Positions 1 to 7,583 of a stretch of DNA of 64,000 bases are shown piece after piece. The notes below the pieces were generated by a model. That model was not told the DNA's origin, ran no database searches, and was given only the letters and a program-made list of their open reading frames with translations. Positions within the stretch are counted from its first letter, which is position 1. The number at the start of each line of letters is the position of its first letter. This stretch comes from an uncultured Candidatus Saccharibacteria bacterium (GTDB lineage: Bacteria; Patescibacteriota; Dojkabacteria; SC72), in the NCBI GenBank assembly GCA_964480345.1, contig CAYZNW010000002.1:524-64523 (forward strand). Direction: 5' to 3'. The translations under genes and the position numbers were made by a program.

Positions 1-49
1 GATTCATTATGGTAAAAATATCCTTCTTCCGTCCTTTGTAATTCCATAT

Positions 50-736
50 ATGATTACAAAAGAAGTTGGGAAGATAGACTTTGATTTAAGGTATGACCTA
101 GCAGAAAAGGATTATATGAATTCAGGACAGAGTATAAGATTTCATACAAAGGAATTTGAGTTCATTCTTTATGATAAAAAGAAAGACTTAGAAAAGGCTA
201 AGAATGGCGAAAAAAGCATAGAGAATGATTCGGATGTACAGCTAAACCTTTTTGAGAAGTTCATTCCGAAGAAGTCATTTGAGATATTGAGAATTGAAGC
301 AAGATTAAACACTACGAAGAGAATAAAGAAAGAGCTAAATCTTGAACAAAAAGATTTAATTTTTAAGAGATTATTTAAATCAGAAATCGCATTAGGGGTA
401 TTGAATAAATATTGGAATATAATTATGGAGAATTATCAGTTAATGAATTTTGATATAGATAATAAGGAAAAGTTTTTGGCTAGTTTTATAATAAATAATA
501 AAGATACAAAGATAACATCTGCATTATCAGCATATGCTTTTTTAGAATTTACAAAGGAATTAGGTATAAGAAGATTTAGAAAACTTCTTGAGCATAAGTA
601 TGATAAAAGATCGTGGTACTCATTAAAGTCTAGAATTAGCAGTTATAATTTAAAGAAAATCCCGTCTAAACAGATAGAATATGTTTCTGAATATTTACAT
701 AGTTACGAACCTATATATCTGAAAGACTTTCAGTAA
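50..736 (+). CDS. hypothetical protein, possibly 5'-truncated by the window edge
   Basis: ORF track. The same frame is open from position 2 up to the ATG at 50, so the protein may start upstream of the window. Lys/Glu-rich with no recognisable motif. It lies directly upstream of the R-M controller-like gene. Confidence 0.4.
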   Translation: MITKEVGKIDFDLRYDLAEKDYMNSGQSIRFHTKEFEFILYDKKKDLEKAKNGEKSIENDSDVQLNLFEKFIPKKSFEILRIEARLNTTKRIKKELNLEQKDLIFKRLFKSEIALGVLNKYWNIIMENYQLMNFDIDNKEKFLASFIINNKDTKITSALSAYAFLEFTKELGIRRFRKLLEHKYDKRSWYSLKSRISSYNLKKIPSKQIEYVSEYLHSYEPIYLKDFQ

Positions 737-782
737 ATCTGTTGCAAAATATTCAAATTATCTTTAATATGTATTTCATAAT

Positions 783-1022
783 ATGGAAACTGTTACCATG
801 TACCTATCTGAAGCATTAAAGACAACTAGGGTAAGGCAGAATTTAACACAAAAAGAGTTGTCTAGGATGTCAGGAATTAGCTATTCCACTATTACAAAAA
901 TTGAGACTGGGGTTATTACCAATCCTAGCTTTTTTCTTGTTGTTAAATTATGTCAGGCATTAGAAATAACTACTGACAATTTACTTAAACTAATTACAAA
1001 TTATGATGGCAAAACAAAGTGA
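783..1022 (+). CDS. XRE-family helix-turn-helix transcriptional regulator (candidate R-M controller 'C protein')
   Basis: 79 aa. Classic Cro/C1 HTH (LTQKELSRMSGISYSTITKIETG). Its 3' end overlaps the start of the mod gene, as is typical for C-protein/MTase arrangements. Confidence 0.7.
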   Translation: METVTMYLSEALKTTRVRQNLTQKELSRMSGISYSTITKIETGVITNPSFFLVVKLCQALEITTDNLLKLITNYDGKTK

Positions 1023-2955
1023 ACCTCAGAGTATATCTCCAATTAAAGGAAGACCAATGCTTCAATGGACTGGAAAGAAGCCTTTAGAATCAATTGAATA
1101 TTTTCCTGCACAAGAGAAAGAAATGTATGGAGATTTAGATGCTAAGGAATTTAACAAGCTATTCTGGGGTGATAACTTACAAGTTTTGTCACATTTGCTA
1201 AAAGAATATAGAGGCAAAATTAATATGATATACATAGATCCACCTTTTGATAGTAAGGCTGAATATGTAAAGAAGATTAAAATTAGAGATAAACAATATC
1301 AAGGACAAAATCAAAGTCTACTTGAAGAGAAGCAATATACAGATATATGGGAAAATGATGAGTATCTTCAATTTATGTATGAAAGATTGGTAATATTAAG
1401 AGAATTGCTTGATGATACAGGGTATTGCTATTTACATGTTGATCCTATCAAAGGTCATTACTTGAAATTAATTATGGATGAGATTTTTGGCCCTGAGAAT
1501 TTTGTAAATCAAATTATATGGAAGAGAACTTTTTCTCATGGTGATGTTGGTCAAGGTGCTGAGCATATGGGAAGGTTGCATGACATGATTCTTTTCTATA
1601 GAAAAACACCTTCTGCTAAATTAAATATTTTATATACACCTTACACCAAGAAATACTTAAAAGATTTTTATAAATATGAAGATGATAAAGGAATTTATCG
1701 TTTAGTATCCCTTCTTGGTCCTGGAGGAGCTTCAAAGGGAAATCCCTACTATGAATTTTTAGGAGTAAGTAGATATTGGGTACATTCAAAAGAAAAAATG
1801 GAAAAGTTATATAAACAGGGTTTAATAGTTCAGACTAAACCAGGTTCTGTTCCTCAAAAGAAGAGATATTTAAACAATTCAAAAGGTGTTCCATTACAAG
1901 ATATATGGACAGATTTAAATCCTGTTCAAGGTTCAAGTTTAGAGAATTTCGGTTATCCAACTCAGAAACCAGAAGCTTTATTAGAAAGAATAATTTCTAC
2001 ATCTTCGGCTAAAGGTGGTTTGGTTCTTGATTGCTTCTGTGGAGGTGGTACTACATTAGCAGTAGCTCAAAAATTAGGAAGAAGATGGATAGGTTGTGAT
2101 ATTAACCTAGGTGCTATTCAAACTACAACAAAGAGATTAAATCAAATTCTTGAAGAACAGAAACAAAAGAAACTTCTTGATAAATCTCAAGGTCTATCTG
2201 CTTTTAAAGTCTACAATGTGAATGATTATGAAATCTTTAAGAATGAAATAGAATCTAAAGAAATCATAATGGAAATGTATGGAGTTGAACCTATTAAACA
2301 AAGCTATTTTGATGGTGTATTAGATCAAAATTTAGTCAAGGTAATGCCTCTCAATAGAGTCTTAAACAAAATGGATGTAGAAAATCTATTAAAAGAAATA
2401 AGTAAATCCACAGATCAATTTACACCTAAAACAACAACATCTAAGGAAGAAGAGACCTATGAGGAAGGGGTTTTAATTATAGCTTCAGGTGTTGAATTAG
2501 ATGCTCAAAATTATTTGAGGAAGGAAAACAAAACTGGAGTAAAAGTTGAAATAAGAGATATTCAAGCAGATAAAAAGAACCTTTTGTTCAAAAAACCAAC
2601 AGAAGCAGAAGTTGAGGTTCATACTGTTGAAAATAAGGCAATTGTCTCTGTCAAGGACTTCTACTCTCCTATTCTTGTTCAAAAGTTAGAGCTAGAAAAT
2701 GAAAAACAACTAAATCCTAAAGGTAAAGTTGTAATAGAAGATTTTAAACAAATTATTGACTCTGTATGTATTGATATAAATTACAATGGAAAACTATTTA
2801 ATGCAGAGATAATGGATATACCAGATAAGAAAAACCTTGTTAGTGCTACATATGAACATGAGTACACATCAAAAGGAAAATATACATTGGCAATAAAGAT
2901 AGTAGATGTCTTAGGTGAAGAATACTTTGAAACATTTGATATTAGTATTAAATAA
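1003..2955 (+). CDS. mod: Type III restriction-modification system methyltransferase (Mod), beta-class amino-MTase
   Basis: Motif IV IYIDPPF (DPPF) lies N-terminal to motif I DCFCGGGTT (FxGxG), which is the beta-class order. It is immediately followed, 2 bp after its stop, by a helicase/endonuclease res gene. Has an extra roughly 250-aa C-terminal region. Confidence 0.75.
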   Translation: MMAKQSEPQSISPIKGRPMLQWTGKKPLESIEYFPAQEKEMYGDLDAKEFNKLFWGDNLQVLSHLLKEYRGKINMIYIDPPFDSKAEYVKKIKIRDKQYQGQNQSLLEEKQYTDIWENDEYLQFMYERLVILRELLDDTGYCYLHVDPIKGHYLKLIMDEIFGPENFVNQIIWKRTFSHGDVGQGAEHMGRLHDMILFYRKTPSAKLNILYTPYTKKYLKDFYKYEDDKGIYRLVSLLGPGGASKGNPYYEFLGVSRYWVHSKEKMEKLYKQGLIVQTKPGSVPQKKRYLNNSKGVPLQDIWTDLNPVQGSSLENFGYPTQKPEALLERIISTSSAKGGLVLDCFCGGGTTLAVAQKLGRRWIGCDINLGAIQTTTKRLNQILEEQKQKKLLDKSQGLSAFKVYNVNDYEIFKNEIESKEIIMEMYGVEPIKQSYFDGVLDQNLVKVMPLNRVLNKMDVENLLKEISKSTDQFTPKTTTSKEEETYEEGVLIIASGVELDAQNYLRKENKTGVKVEIRDIQADKKNLLFKKPTEAEVEVHTVENKAIVSVKDFYSPILVQKLELENEKQLNPKGKVVIEDFKQIIDSVCIDINYNGKLFNAEIMDIPDKKNLVSATYEHEYTSKGKYTLAIKIVDVLGEEYFETFDISIK

Positions 2956-2957
2956 TT

Positions 2958-5498
2958 ATGACTACCCTACTCTTAGAAAAACTCAAAAACAAAGTAGAAT
3001 CTTGGAAGTCAGAAGGTTATCCTGGCATAACATCTGAGACAAGAAAAATCCTTAATCATATTTATAAAGTAAATTACCTTTATAGACCTCAGAAAGAAGC
3101 ATTTGAAACATATGTTTATATTAAGGAAATACTAGCGAATAAAACTACTTCAGATATTATCCCTTCTCTTTATGAATCAGATAGAGAGTTAATAGAAAGC
3201 CTCTCAATATCATCAGAAGAGAAAGTAGATCTAGCATATGATCCAAAAAGAGATGAGAAGATAAAAGAACTTATTGAAAAACAATATGGTCAATTTGCTT
3301 ACCCTAATCAAGTATATGCATTGACAATGGGTGCAGGTAAAACTCTATTGATGGGTACATTAGTAATGTATGAATTTATTTTGTCATCTCAGTATCCTGA
3401 AGACCCTAAATTTGCTAAGAATATACTTGTCTTTGCTCCTGATACAACCATTATTGAGAGCTTAAAAGAAATAAAATCTTTTGATTACAGAATTGTTGTT
3501 CCAAAAGAATATGAAAATGTTGTGCTAAATATAAAATATCACTATTTAGAGACACCTGACACACCTGTAAACCTAGTTGGAAATTACAATATTATTGTTT
3601 CAAATTCTCAGAAGATTATTCTTAAAAAGAAAAATAATGTTTTGAAGTCTGGACAAATCCTATTAAATGAAGCTGATAGAAATAAACAATTCCATAAAAA
3701 TTTAAGAAGAGAAGCTATAAGAAGACTTTCCAATCTAGCTATATTTGTAGATGAAGCTCATCACTCTTATGGCTCAAATCTTGATAAAACATTGAAAAGG
3801 ACAAGACAAACAATAAAATATTTAAATGAAGAAGGTAAAACACCTTTAGTAAATGTTGTTAATCTTACTGGAACACCTTATGTAAACAACAATCTCATAA
3901 GTGATGTTGTATATCACTTTGGATTAAAACAAGGTATTGAAGAAGGGATTTTAAAGCAAGTGAAATTCAAAGATTATGATAATGTAAAGTCAGAGGAATT
4001 TGTTTCAGATGTTGTAGATGAATTTTTAGACAAATACAGTAATATTAAATTAGAAGGTAAATTACCCAAGATAGCCTTTTATTCAAGTAACATAGAAGAT
4101 CTACAACAGAATCTAAGACCAGCATTAGAAAAAGTATTAACAAGTAAGGGTATATCTATAGATACAATCCTTGAATATCACACAAAGAAGGAAGAAAACA
4201 AAGAAGAATTTATTAAGTTGGATACTGAAGAAAGCAAAAAACAATATATCCTTCTAGTAGGTAAAGGTACAGAAGGATGGAATGTTCGTTCTCTAGTGGC
4301 TACAGCTCTCTACAGGAAGCCTACAAGCTCTATCTTTGTCCTTCAGGCTTCTACAAGGTGTATGAGGTCAATAGGAGACAATTCAACCCCTGCTACAATC
4401 TTCTTATCCAATGAAAATGCAACAATTCTAGAAAAAGAGTTGCAAAAGAACTTTGCAGTTACTAGGGCTGATTTAGAAAGGCAAGATATAGAAAAAGTTG
4501 ATTTAGAATTAAATGTTTTAAAAAAGAAGAAAGTTAAAGTTAAAAAAGTTCTTAAAGAGATTGTAAGTATAGAGAAAAAAGAACCTAAAGATATTACTCT
4601 TAAATCAATTGATGATTATGCTTCTGGTATTAAGGGAAGTGTTATTACTGAAGGTGGTATCTTATTGGATAAGGATAATAAGACAGCATACATTCAAACT
4701 AAATCCAAGAAAGAAAAGAAATGGGAGAAATCTTCAATTTCACCTTATCATCTAATTTCTAATCTATCTATTAGAACTCACCTGCCTTGCTTGAGCATTA
4801 AAGAGATCTTGGAAAATAATGATTTAAAAATAGATGATATAGAAAAGCTTAACACTAAAAATTATGATGATATTCTGAACCTAATATCACAAGATATTAC
4901 AAATCAGATTTTTGAGTATAAAGAGAACAAAACTGTTATTGAGGAAGAATTGGAATTAACAAAGAACTTCCCATTTAAGTTATCTAGAGATATAGGAAAA
5001 AGTAAGTTAGTAGTATACAAAGCGGAGGGAGATGATTCAAGATTAGGTTTTCATATAAACCCCTATTCCTTTGATACAGATGATGAAAAGGATCTTTTCT
5101 TATTCTTAAGTGAGACTTTAGAACCTAATGAGGTTATAACAGATGTTTATTTTACAGGGAATATAACTGATTCATCTCATACAGATTTCTATTTTGAATA
5201 TTGGAATCCAACCAAGGAAAAAATAAGTAGATATTTCCCAGACTTTTTGATTGAAACTAGTAAGGGTAGATTTCTTGTTATTGAAGTAAAAGGTGACCAG
5301 GAAAGAACTACATATCAACAAAATAAAGAGATGTTTGAGAAAGGTGAGAAGAAAATCTTTGATGAGGTATATGCAAAAGAATTAGGTTTCAAAGATTTTC
5401 AACAGGAGAATAAGAATTTTGATTATCACATAATATTTAATGCCAAATTACAGCAAAGGCAAAAAGAGTTGTTGGGTAAGATAAATTCAAACATATAA
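2958..5498 (+). CDS. res: Type III restriction enzyme Res subunit (SF2 DEAH helicase + C-terminal PD-ExK nuclease)
   Basis: Walker A MGAGKTLL, DEAH box FVDEAHHS and motif III LTGTP. C-terminal nuclease motif YFPDFLIETSKGRFLVIEVKG (PD...EVK). Gene order mod-res. Confidence 0.75.
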   Translation: MTTLLLEKLKNKVESWKSEGYPGITSETRKILNHIYKVNYLYRPQKEAFETYVYIKEILANKTTSDIIPSLYESDRELIESLSISSEEKVDLAYDPKRDEKIKELIEKQYGQFAYPNQVYALTMGAGKTLLMGTLVMYEFILSSQYPEDPKFAKNILVFAPDTTIIESLKEIKSFDYRIVVPKEYENVVLNIKYHYLETPDTPVNLVGNYNIIVSNSQKIILKKKNNVLKSGQILLNEADRNKQFHKNLRREAIRRLSNLAIFVDEAHHSYGSNLDKTLKRTRQTIKYLNEEGKTPLVNVVNLTGTPYVNNNLISDVVYHFGLKQGIEEGILKQVKFKDYDNVKSEEFVSDVVDEFLDKYSNIKLEGKLPKIAFYSSNIEDLQQNLRPALEKVLTSKGISIDTILEYHTKKEENKEEFIKLDTEESKKQYILLVGKGTEGWNVRSLVATALYRKPTSSIFVLQASTRCMRSIGDNSTPATIFLSNENATILEKELQKNFAVTRADLERQDIEKVDLELNVLKKKKVKVKKVLKEIVSIEKKEPKDITLKSIDDYASGIKGSVITEGGILLDKDNKTAYIQTKSKKEKKWEKSSISPYHLISNLSIRTHLPCLSIKEILENNDLKIDDIEKLNTKNYDDILNLISQDITNQIFEYKENKTVIEEELELTKNFPFKLSRDIGKSKLVVYKAEGDDSRLGFHINPYSFDTDDEKDLFLFLSETLEPNEVITDVYFTGNITDSSHTDFYFEYWNPTKEKISRYFPDFLIETSKGRFLVIEVKGDQERTTYQQNKEMFEKGEKKIFDEVYAKELGFKDFQQENKNFDYHIIFNAKLQQRQKELLGKINSNI

Positions 5499-5501
5499 AA
5501 G

Positions 5502-6995
5502 GTGAGAACAATTCTCTTAGCAAGAGTCTCAACATATGAACAAGAGACTATTCAACAGATAACAAAATTAAAGGAATATATTAACTCAAGACCTGAGCTA
5601 ACACTTGCAAAGGAAGATATTTTTGATTTTGATGAAAGTGCTCACAAGGATCTTTCTCAGAGAAAAAAGTTTAATGAAGTATTAGAAACAATTGCACGGG
5701 CAAGTGAGAAAATAGCAGTTTGTTCTGACAAAATTGATAGAATGACAAGAGATTTTCTTACTTTCTTACCAGTAATTGATCGTCTTAGAAAAAAGGACAA
5801 GGTTGAACTACACTTCCCTGGTGATAATTTAATACTCAACAATGAATCTCCTGCTGGAGATTTATTTAGGTTTAATATGGGTGTAAGTTTGGCTCAATAT
5901 TACTCAGATTCAATAAGTGATGGAGTTAAGAGAAAAATTGCTTACAAGATTAGAGAAGGAGAGATTCTTACCCTTGCCCCATTTGGATATAAGAATGTTC
6001 GTGTTGGAGATACTGAAGAAAGAACTGTAGTGGTAGATGAATATGAGGCACAGATTGTTCTTAAATTGTTTCAACTTTATTCAACAGGTGCTTATTCCTA
6101 TTCTGACTTAAAGAAATTAGTATATGAAGAATACAATGTAGAGCTTGGAGATAAGGATAACAGAGGTAAATCATCAATTGGGAACATATTAACCAACAAA
6201 TTTTATATTGGGATTGCAACTTACAAAAAGAAAAACCTTCAATATCAACATAAATATGAGACCATAGTTCCTGATTATTTATTTAACAAAGTGAGTGAAA
6301 TAAGGGAATCTAGGACTCTCAGCAAGGGTAGAGGTAAGACAAGTAAGAAGGATTTCCTTTATGGTAACACTATCAAATGCTCGGTTTGTGGTTATTCAAT
6401 TACTCCTGAAGAACATAGAGGTAAAGCTAGTTATAAATGTACTGAATATGGAGGTAAGCATGGTGCAAAATATGTACAAGAAAAAGTGTTAGATGAGCAA
6501 TTTAGAAAGGCATTTGAAAGGTTGACATTGCCACAGAAGAAAGCAGAAAAGTTAATTGATGATCTTAGAAAGATAAATGATGTAAATTACTATATTGCAG
6601 AAGGGACATTGGAGAAGCTGTATGAGAAGAAGGATACAATTAAGAAAATGAAATCAAAATTGTATGATGACTATGCCTCTGGTAAGCCAGGTATTACTAA
6701 TGATTTCTATGAAGAAAAGATAAGACAGTATGATTTAGATACTGCTGAGATAGATGAAAAAATTAAAAGAGTTGAGAAAGTAGAAAGTTCCTTTTATGTA
6801 ACAGCAGGATACATTATAGAGCTAACCAAGAATAGTTCTAAACTATTTGAAGTTTCAAAAGAAGAAGAAAGAAGGCTATTGATTAAGACAGTACTTCTGA
6901 ACATAACATGGGATGGAGAAAAGCTTTATTATGACTATAATTCTCCCTTTGATTTGATAGTAAAATTGAATGAAAGTACAGACTGGGGTGTATAA
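5502..6995 (+). CDS. large serine recombinase (resolvase/integrase family)
   Basis: The N-terminus LLARVSTYEQ contains the catalytic Ser motif of serine recombinases. 497 aa, with a C-terminal zinc-ribbon-like CSVCGYS...YKCTEYGG segment typical of large serine recombinases. Starts with GTG at 5502. Confidence 0.75.
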   Translation: MRTILLARVSTYEQETIQQITKLKEYINSRPELTLAKEDIFDFDESAHKDLSQRKKFNEVLETIARASEKIAVCSDKIDRMTRDFLTFLPVIDRLRKKDKVELHFPGDNLILNNESPAGDLFRFNMGVSLAQYYSDSISDGVKRKIAYKIREGEILTLAPFGYKNVRVGDTEERTVVVDEYEAQIVLKLFQLYSTGAYSYSDLKKLVYEEYNVELGDKDNRGKSSIGNILTNKFYIGIATYKKKNLQYQHKYETIVPDYLFNKVSEIRESRTLSKGRGKTSKKDFLYGNTIKCSVCGYSITPEEHRGKASYKCTEYGGKHGAKYVQEKVLDEQFRKAFERLTLPQKKAEKLIDDLRKINDVNYYIAEGTLEKLYEKKDTIKKMKSKLYDDYASGKPGITNDFYEEKIRQYDLDTAEIDEKIKRVEKVESSFYVTAGYIIELTKNSSKLFEVSKEEERRLLIKTVLLNITWDGEKLYYDYNSPFDLIVKLNESTDWGV

Positions 6996-7130
6996 ATGGA
7001 CCTGGTATGGAAGCTAAAGAGAGTGTTTCTAACAGAAGAAAAAAGATTTACAAATACAGAGATTACGCAAGACGATTAGAGAAAGACTTAGGAAAATCAG
7101 GTTTGAAAATACATGCTGAAGATATAAATT

Positions 7131-7583
7131 TTGAGAGAAAATTCAATGAGTAAATATATGCTAGAAGCAATTAAAGAGGCAAAGAAAGGAATATCGCAAG
7201 GACATGGAGGACCTTTTGGAGCTGTAATTGTTTGCAAAGGAAAGATTGTAGCTAAAGCACATAATACTGTATTGCATGATAAAGATGCTACCTGTCATGC
7301 AGAGATGCAAGCTATTAGGAAGGCCTCTAAAGCATTAAAGAAGTTCGATCTGTCAGGCTGTGAGCTGTATACAACAGGTAAGCCTTGCCCTATGTGTAAG
7401 AGTGCTTTGAAGTGGGCTAAGATTAAGAGTGTATATTTCGGTTGTGATTATAGTGATGCTAAGAGAGTAGGTTTTTCTGAAAAAGATGGTAACAGTAATG
7501 GATATGTTGAGAAAAGGCTCCTTTCTAAAGAGTGTAAGGAGTTGTACTCCGAGTACAAGAAATTGAAAATGCCAAGATATTAA
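7131..7583 (+). CDS. CDA-fold nucleobase deaminase, guanine deaminase (GuaD)-like / TadA-like
   Basis: Zinc-binding motifs HAEMQAIRKA and PCPMCKSAL. GGPFGAVIV and the overall pattern resemble small Bacillus-type guanine deaminases. Confidence 0.6.
   Translation: MRENSMSKYMLEAIKEAKKGISQGHGGPFGAVIVCKGKIVAKAHNTVLHDKDATCHAEMQAIRKASKALKKFDLSGCELYTTGKPCPMCKSALKWAKIKSVYFGCDYSDAKRVGFSEKDGNSNGYVEKRLLSKECKELYSEYKKLKMPRY

Follow-up and report, generated by a model that had tools for sequence, protein, structure and literature searches.

We analyzed a 64,000-nucleotide stretch of contig CAYZNW010000002.1 (positions 524 to 64,523; hereafter the window, whose own numbering is used below). Its first 7 kb are probably the right-hand part of an integrative element of Candidatus Dojkabacteria, within the Patescibacteria or candidate phyla radiation (CPR). 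According to our reconstruction, window positions 2 to 6989 belong to an element of 8 to 11 kb in which a Type III-like restriction-modification (R-M) system lies between a gene for a Rep-like replication initiator and a gene for a large serine recombinase (LSR), and this copy entered a hydrogenase-like gene, not tRNA-His. A preliminary description of the same sequence had proposed that the block is a mobile island with a large serine recombinase. This reading is now strongly supported: the block is 79 to 93% identical at the nucleotide level to copies in unrelated contexts, and its ends are sharp.

Recurrence and backbone of the element

Five genes, all on the forward strand, make up the block. 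A Rep-like open reading frame (ORF; positions 2 to 736, the C-terminal 244 codons of an element backbone gene) is followed by a gene for an XRE protein of 79 amino acids (aa), which belongs to the Cro-C1 family of helix-turn-helix (HTH) proteins (783 to 1022). Next come mod, for a 650-aa beta-class N6/N4 DNA methyltransferase (1003 to 2955); res, for an 846-aa protein that joins a superfamily 2 (SF2) helicase-type ATPase to a C-terminal PD-(D/E)xK motif (2958 to 5498); and the LSR gene, which has a GTG start and encodes 497 aa (5502 to 6995). The XRE gene and mod overlap by 20 nt, and the gaps between mod and res and between res and the recombinase gene are 2 and 3 nt, respectively. These five ORFs, their spacing, and the motifs quoted for them in the preliminary description were all recovered in the same places. 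The G+C content is about 28 to 33% within the block versus about 32 to 38% downstream.

The five-gene block occurs in identical order at the related loci L001/L002, L003, L004/L005, and L006/L007, where it encodes a Rep-like protein of 375 to 383 aa, an HTH protein, a Mod of 589 to 597 aa, a Res of 846 to 848 aa, and an LSR of 497 to 515 aa. At the nucleotide level, the window is 79 to 85% identical to the other copies over positions 1 to 1443, from the Rep-like gene to the 5' part of mod, and 90 to 93% identical over positions 1951 to 7004, from the 3' part of mod to the LSR gene. The elements of L007 and L003 are 93.6% identical, while their flanking genes are only 67 to 70% identical. Over 10.8 kb, L001 and L002 share 99.99% of their nucleotides but differ immediately to the left of the recombination core described below. 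The element is thus far better conserved than its hosts, a pattern that points to horizontal spread in recent times. Proteins identical to the Mod and LSR of the window were not found by exact look-up in public assemblies.

In L007, a contig of 671 kb, the element measures 10,761 bp from core to core. The cargo between the left end and Rep varies among copies. In L001 (3445 to 6429) and L007 (6656 to 9640), it comprises a 149-aa ORF, an ADP-ribosylglycohydrolase with a C-terminal extension (395 aa), an alpha/beta hydrolase, and a Cthe_2314-like HEPN protein; in L004 (5811 to 6479), it is a single 222-aa ORF.

More distant Rep homologs are again paired with an LSR that runs over the 3' end of a tRNA gene, with a different middle. 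Namely, Dojkabacteria HGW-1 has a 6.3-kb element consisting of a 58-aa ORF, Rep, an MmeI-like Type IIG enzyme (1061 aa), an LSR, and tRNA-His. This LSR is 51.5% identical to that of the window, the left end resembles that of L007, and there is no XRE gene. A Saccharibacteria genome has the two genes side by side, Rep first, and its LSR (31% identical) overlaps tRNA-Ser; on a contig from IMG/VR, a 71-aa ORF stands between Rep and the LSR that follows. This recurrent pairing indicates that the backbone is Rep plus LSR and that various R-M cassettes can occupy the slot between them. In the arrangement that we propose, a G2P/CRI-like Rep would lie near one end and the LSR at the opposite end, and the slot would be filled here by the XRE-mod-res cassette.

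The Rep-like ORF of the window is open from base 2 to base 736. Because no stop codon precedes the ATG at position 50, the ORF is partial at its 5' end, in agreement with the preliminary description. About 139 N-terminal codons of the full-length gene fall to the left of the window, and the part that is present aligns with residues 140 to 383 of the product of L001 6789 to 7940. The same description had suggested that this ORF might be a cargo gene; instead, it belongs to a conserved backbone gene. We assign its product, with moderate confidence, as a probable rolling-circle-type initiator distantly related to the G2P/CRI proteins of filamentous phages. The family has 79 database members, Dojkabacteria and Saccharibacteria among them, and its invariant residues include K144-N145, Y196-D197-K198, and R236/E238/R240; Y196-D197-K198 is a candidate catalytic tyrosine motif. 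PF05144 (Phage_CRI/G2P N-terminal) is matched by 6 of 25 aligned family members (best E value, 2.6e-6), and three database relatives carry a precomputed PF05144 domain. Searches with the protein itself gave no match in PHROG, NCBIfam, or PDB sequences. An AlphaFold2 (AF2) model (pLDDT, 87.5; pTM, 0.85), compared with BFVD by Foldseek, matches unnamed viral proteins at 1.2e-8 (TM scores, 0.52/0.55), an Inoviridae protein at 3.9e-7, and an annotated G2P at 2.9e-4 (TM scores, 0.38/0.40). No replication origin was identified. Once excised, the element would be a circle that Rep probably copies or maintains, and by analogy with MobT (PMC5704250), Rep could double as a relaxase.

About 190 bp immediately 5' of the Rep gene are conserved (L001 6599 to 6789). 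Two small features lie 5' of Rep. In three lineages, a short ORF of 49 to 68 aa directly precedes it (L001 6635 to 6841, L004 6635 to 6820, L044 8820 to 8996, and L046 8606 to 8755). These ORFs share the motif L-x-(K/Q)-I-(N/D)-(E/Q)-R-x-(K/Q)-I-(V/I), and their product could be a directionality factor or a regulator. The distant copies were not connected by blastp. In addition, a terminator-like hairpin followed by a T-run opens the conserved core in L007 (9825 to 9850), L001 (about 6620 to 6650), and L004 (about 6610 to 6640), with a stem that is kept and a loop that varies among copies.

The kinship of the Rep family with the G2P/CRI proteins of Inoviridae raises the alternative of a filamentous (inovirus-like) prophage, either defective or a satellite, in place of a plasmid-like integrative element. 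The RstR-like match of the XRE protein and the occurrence of one Rep-LSR locus on a contig filed in IMG/VR would fit this view. Yet genes for morphogenesis, coat, and Zot-like ATPase proteins are absent from every copy, the smallest copy has 6.3 kb and only four ORFs, and an exact search of viral contigs for the left end of the element gave 0 matches. We consider a prophage origin quite improbable.

Attachment sites and the junction in a hydrogenase-like gene

The recombinase matches the Pfam domains Resolvase (1.3e-14, aa 4 to 154), Recombinase (PF07508, 4.7e-8), and Zn_ribbon_recom (PF13408, 1.9e-4, slightly below the cut-off). This architecture is shared with phiC31, Bxb1, CcrA/B, and XisF-type integrases, from phages and from staphylococcal cassette chromosome (SCC), skin, and fdxN elements. 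The protein has the catalytic-serine motif LLARVSTYEQ, matches the PHROG 95 integrase over its full length (1.4e-61), and finds its nearest NCBIfam models in XisF and CcrA. It is 97% identical in amino acid sequence to the recombinase of L007.

Comparison of the copies defines both ends of the element. On the right, the similarity of the window to every copy ends at positions 6990 to 7004 (blastn), and every copy ends with ...GACTGGGGT, at or a few bases before the LSR stop codon. On the left, every copy starts with TGGGGTCATGTAGTGG; the left ends of the other copies open with TGGGGTCATGTAGTGGACTTATTCA, and their left-end 29-mer is TGGGGTCATGTAGTGGACTTATTCAGAAC. At least 11 different left flanks precede this end, including those of ten metagenome contigs found by exact search with the 29-mer, all ten of which are attL-type junctions. 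The core TGGGGT is present at both ends in relatives, and the window contains attR only. The element half of this attR spans positions 6967 to 6989 on the forward strand (TGAATGAAAGT-N10-GT), with the core at 6984 to 6989 and the end of the element at about 6989.

When the two ends are joined on paper, the deduced attP reads TGAATGAAAGT-N10-GT-N10-ACTTATTCA and is dyad symmetric about GT, the putative central dinucleotide. The att sites of phage, SCC, skin, and fdxN integrases are likewise imperfect dyads centered on a short core. An excised circle would carry the attP junction GTACAGACTGGGGTCATGTAGTGG, and the circle junction expected on excision is ...GAAAGTACAGACTGGGGTCATGTAGTGGACTTATTC.... 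The recombinase ORF itself crosses the core (window 6984 to 6995; L005 6842 to 8389; L007 15735 to 17228), so that flanking DNA supplies the stop codon. The last codons of the gene and its stop lie past the core, and the C-terminal tail varies with the junction: the protein has 497 aa in three copies (window, L001, and L007) and 515 aa in L005, and excision is predicted to lengthen it to 532 aa. This ORF spanning the core, with its variable tail, sets the element apart from the phage, SCC, skin, and fdxN integrases, as does its targeting of a tRNA 3' end. No recombination directionality factor (RDF) was identified in the element.

The tRNA target is apparent from the right-hand flanks of the relatives. 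In L003, L004, L007, and L044, the LSR end borders a minus-strand tRNA-His gene, and the recombinase genes of L003, L004/L005, and L007 run into its 3' end. TGGGGT is the reverse complement of ACCCCA, the 3' end of tRNA-His. Judging from these junction sequences, the element usually integrates at the 3' CCA terminus of the tRNA-His gene. The LSR would recombine attP, through its TGGGGT core, with this chromosomal site, and integration would regenerate the CCA end. Other CPR LSRs, some of them 21 to 31% identical to that of the window, also end within the 3' end of a tRNA gene for His or Ser (L041 15016 to 16685, L046 10157 to 11793, and L044 13347 to 14868), and serine integrases of CPR bacteria may commonly use such targets.

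The window copy lies elsewhere. Positions 6986 to 7153 on the forward strand, the host half of the junction, translate in frame as GCINGPGMEAKESV...INFERKFNE* and constitute the last 55 codons plus the stop codon of a hydrogenase-like gene. This remnant matches the last 53 to 58 residues of a 283- to 289-aa protein with the Fe_hyd_lg_C domain, the C-domain of the [FeFe]-hydrogenase large subunit. By tblastn, it aligns with residues 231 to 288 and 233 to 285 of the intact genes of L010 and L012, with 66 to 74% identity and E values of 1e-21 to 1e-22. In six related loci, L003, L010, L012, L013, and L015 among them, the hydrogenase-like gene is intact and followed by the same deaminase gene as in the window, and in L010 the same acetyl-CoA synthetase gene as in the window also follows, on the opposite strand. 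The comparison with related genomes that the preliminary description had called for does, then, reveal an intact version of the insertion site: the relatives read ...GATGG(A/T)GG(G/T)TGTATTAATGG..., and the window reads ...GACTGGGGTGTATAAATGG.... The first approximately 230 codons of the hydrogenase-like gene occur nowhere in the window according to tblastn. An inversion that left this 5' part elsewhere in the window was rejected by that search.

Downstream of the remnant lie host genes, by which the host is identified as Candidatus Dojkabacteria. The first intact one, which serves as the synteny anchor, encodes a cytidine/deoxycytidylate-type deaminase (7146 to 7583, forward strand; dCMP_cyt_deam_1, 1.1e-25), followed by genes for an ADP-forming acetyl-CoA synthetase and a 2-oxoacid:ferredoxin oxidoreductase. 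The preliminary description was correct in noting housekeeping genes here, but they do not follow the recombinase gene immediately, since the 135-bp "intergenic" stretch is the hydrogenase-like remnant. The deaminase is 78% identical at the amino acid level to that of the closest genome, Candidatus Dojkabacteria isolate SBF912SR1HQ0033 (L008), and the host flank is 77.6% identical at the nucleotide level to this genome, with synteny kept over 8.5 kb. An exact search of metagenome contigs for the junction flank of the window gave 0 matches.

The simplest reading of these data is a recombinase-mediated integration at a secondary site within the hydrogenase-like gene. The partner would be a look-alike of the tRNA-His site in a dispensable gene, now interrupted about 55 codons upstream of the stop. 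The hydrogenase-like gene is missing from L008 and therefore appears to be dispensable. Integrative and mobilizable elements (IMEs) with serine recombinases often interrupt dispensable genes (PMC5704250), and LSRs can use pseudo-attB sites (PMC5937489).

Alternatively, the element may have resided at tRNA-His, and a deletion, mediated by the recombinase or otherwise, may have fused its right end to the look-alike site in the hydrogenase-like gene a few kilobases downstream, with loss of tRNA-His and the genes between. In L007 and L003, a hydrogenase-like gene followed by the deaminase gene indeed lies 3.4 to 5.9 kb downstream of the tRNA-His junction on the same strand, and an independent insertion so near the usual site would be a coincidence. 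Moreover, the 64 kb of the window contain no tRNA-His, glmS, or Zn-peptidase gene. Such a deletion, however, would have removed tRNA-His and glmS, both likely essential in a small genome, and a reaction between attR and a pseudo-attB is not a normal LSR reaction given the general directionality of these enzymes. Gene order around the deaminase also varies among Dojkabacteria (L008, L010, and L012); therefore, the tRNA-His neighborhood of L003 and L007 need not hold in the host of the window. We regard the deletion scenario as unlikely and favor integration at a secondary site.

The XRE-mod-res cassette

The modification subunit is the best defined component of the cassette. Mod matches Pfam N6_N4_Mtase (6.8e-47); in PADLOC, its top model is MTase_II (1e-78), with MTase_III at 3e-55, and its closest solved structure is EcoP15I Mod (1.4e-18). 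The motif IDPPFDS (aa 78 to 84, with DPPF at 80 to 83) precedes FCGGGTT (aa 345 to 351), and a variable target-recognition domain (TRD) lies between them at about aa 130 to 315 (positions 1444 to 1950, forward strand), as delimited by a break in blastn similarity and by protein alignment. The protein also carries a conserved C-terminal extension of about 235 aa.

Similarity within mod breaks at positions 1443 to 1951 against L001/L004 and at 1522 to 1953 against L007. Protein alignment revealed three unrelated TRD alleles in otherwise near-identical Mod proteins, one in the window (1444 to 1950), one in L001/L004 (L001 8645 to 8994), and one in L007 (11936 to 12187). The presence of three TRDs in near-identical elements indicates a recent specificity swap by recombination. 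In functional terms, the specificity of the cassette would be altered through exchange of the TRD. We looked for a phase-variable simple-sequence tract in mod and found none.

Upstream of mod, the XRE protein is a generic Cro/C1-type HTH protein by sequence, and its matches to controller models are no better than those to phage repressors, Stl of Staphylococcus aureus pathogenicity islands (SaPI), SinR, and antitoxins. It matches Pfam HTH_3 (4.9e-15). Like the genes of C.PvuII, C.AhdI, and C.BclI-type R-M systems, the XRE gene is small, encodes a Cro/C1-type HTH protein, and is located just before the R-M genes, which it overlaps. It is found in all copies that carry the Type III cassette, overlapping the start of mod by 20 nt in every one, which suggests that it is expressed in a coupled manner with the R-M genes. 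It is also missing where a Rep-LSR element has no Type III cassette; it therefore tracks the cassette, not the backbone. A role as controller (C) protein, which the preliminary description had proposed, is thus plausible.

Nonetheless, XRE may instead be the maintenance or immunity repressor of the element, in the manner of RstR beside the G2P-type initiator RstA in CTX-phi, or an antitoxin-like regulator. Its best NCBIfam match is the RstR family repressor (8.5e-11). In PADLOC, the Control_protein match is weak (1.2e-5) and is surpassed by HTH_VI, RmrA, and CapH, and among PDB matches, 434 Cro, Stl, and SinR equal or beat C.BclI (1e-3). Other loci of the Mod-Res family lack an upstream XRE gene. 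C-protein systems have conserved C-box operators, whereas the 46 bp upstream of the XRE gene, where the preliminary description would have placed a C-box, contain no conserved palindrome but only AT-rich partial palindromes that are not kept between copies. Promoter-like matches in this upstream region were not above chance (below the shuffled expectation). The HTH gene also precedes mod rather than res, in contrast to the C-protein systems. Classical C genes go with Type II systems. The tracking of the cassette by XRE and the invariant overlap with mod speak for a controller; a repressor or antitoxin-like role is a serious possibility, to which we give somewhat less than even chances.

Res resembles a restriction subunit in several respects. 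It matches Pfam ResIII above the gathering cut-off (6.6e-8), and its motifs GAGKT, DEAHH, LTGTP, GKGTEGWN, QxxTRCxR, and PD(x14)EVK are invariant in 36 homologs. The nearest curated model is the NCBIfam BPTD_3080 family restriction endonuclease, which the window protein matches at 4.7e-31, below the cut-off, and which is matched by all 36 family members; no description of BPTD_3080 was found in open-access papers. There are 897 database homologs of Res, more than 120 of them full length at 52% identity or more and mostly from CPR bacteria, and a mod gene lies directly upstream of res in every homolog context that we read. The same Mod-Res pair occurs elsewhere without the Rep-LSR backbone or XRE, alone in some loci and in other mobile contexts in others (with a Toprim primase, other recombinases, or DUF2779). 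At L041 (1 to 16620) and L043 (458 to 13046), for instance, the family lies beside a Toprim primase, DUF5659, DUF2779, a tyrosine integrase, and an FtsK-like protein, and these contexts appear to be different CPR mobile elements.

The assignment of the system as Type III, made in the preliminary description, holds for its architecture. As in EcoP1I and EcoP15I, mod and res are co-oriented in that order, Mod is a beta-class enzyme of the N6-methyladenine (m6A) type with a central TRD, and Res joins SF2 ATPase motifs (GAGKT and DEAH) to a C-terminal PD-(D/E)xK. The assignment does not extend to the homology of Res, which in the element (846 aa) is at most homologous to the EcoP1I/EcoP15I subunits over helicase motifs V and VI and is missed by Type III Res models. 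Further differences are the additional conserved C-terminal region of Mod and the XRE gene translationally overlapped with mod. The class is, therefore, best called Type III-like, a designation largely supported by the sequences: a Type III architecture with a Res that has no detectable homology to EcoP1I/EcoP15I Res beyond motifs V and VI. Restriction of DNA by Mod-Res is its predicted function. The cassette would restrict incoming DNA and would probably also stabilize the element through postsegregational killing.

Several results weigh against our reading of the element as a whole. The window Res has no Type III match in PADLOC, REase_III is reached by only 2 of 36 relatives (E value, 0.004), and searches of Res against the PDB, both by sequence and by profile, returned nothing. 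A comparison of the Res family profile with EcoP1I Res of phage P1 (hhalign) aligned only 56 columns, in motifs V and VI, at an E value of 0.06. For Rep, neither the window protein nor its close full-length homolog in L001 has a Pfam match, and no solved structure resembles it significantly in profile or Foldseek searches of the PDB, so that the assignment draws on 6 of 25 family members and moderate fold matches (TM scores, 0.38 to 0.55). As for integration, the left end of the window copy lies outside the window, so that neither its attL nor the beginning of the hydrogenase-like gene is in view; the attP circle junction was absent from one metagenome scan and one viral scan; and no unoccupied tRNA-His site was retrieved. 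Beyond the core, the tRNA-His and hydrogenase sites agree at 8 of 20 positions by our own count, a modest resemblance that is suggestive only.

The results for Res also invite the view that Mod and Res do not form a classical restriction system but a methyltransferase with a helicase-nuclease of another defense type, or else an epigenetic regulator whose partner is unrelated. In line with this, the top PADLOC model of Mod is a Type II methyltransferase, and the AF2 model of Res (pLDDT, 67) matches generic SF2 helicases in Foldseek, with EcoP15I outside the top 50. This view is nevertheless hard to reconcile with the strict adjacency of mod and res across the family, the ResIII match above the gathering cut-off, the nearest NCBIfam model being a restriction endonuclease family, the invariant ATPase and PD-(D/E)xK motifs, and the swapping of TRDs, which is typical of specificity-determining Mod subunits. 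We consider it very unlikely and retain a Type III-like R-M system as our reading.

Relation to known elements and implications

The closest described kind of element is an IME or defense island with a serine recombinase, an initiator-like protein of rolling-circle replication (RCR), and R-M cargo; IMEs with such recombinases, RCR-initiator-like proteins, and R-M cargo are known (PMC5704250). The element has its own integrase, defined ends, and no conjugation machinery, which corresponds to an IME. Like the IMEs of Firmicutes (PMC5704250), it is small and integrated, has a site-specific serine recombinase at one end, encodes a rolling-circle-initiator-type protein that could serve replication or mobilization of the excised circle, carries R-M genes as maintenance or cargo genes, and may interrupt a dispensable gene. 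It differs from them in its CPR host, in its Rep, which is G2P/Phage_CRI-like rather than Rep_trans/MobT or Rep_2, and in its preference for the 3' CCA end of a tRNA gene; tRNA 3'-end targets are associated with tyrosine recombinases in the IME review (PMC5704250). We identified no relaxase, origin of transfer (oriT), or helper conjugative system for the element, and genes for a type IV secretion system (T4SS) or a coupling protein are absent from the elements of 6.3 to 10.8 kb.

No description of this element was found in open-access papers. We tentatively suggest that it represents an undescribed family of minimal integrative replicons present in at least two CPR phyla. The backbone would be only a G2P-like Rep and an LSR targeting tRNA 3' ends, and an R-M cassette (none, Type IIG, or XRE plus Type III) and the specificity domain of Mod would shuttle between species of Patescibacteria. 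Because the recombinase ORF spans the core, its tail would switch between the excised and integrated forms, and this switch might aid directionality without a separate RDF. The proposal as a whole is a speculative one.

Mobile elements of CPR bacteria are poorly characterized, and R-M is thought to be a major part of the defense of these organisms. Here, both ends, the target site, and a modular cargo slot of a compact element are defined. The serine integrase, whose attP is short and defined and whose attB in tRNA-His is conserved, could become an integration tool for bacteria that are hard to engineer. The window copy, in turn, would exemplify how integration at a secondary site can inactivate a gene in nature, here a hydrogenase-like one. 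Overall, R-M cassettes and the specificity domains of their Mod subunits are seen to move between species of Dojkabacteria.

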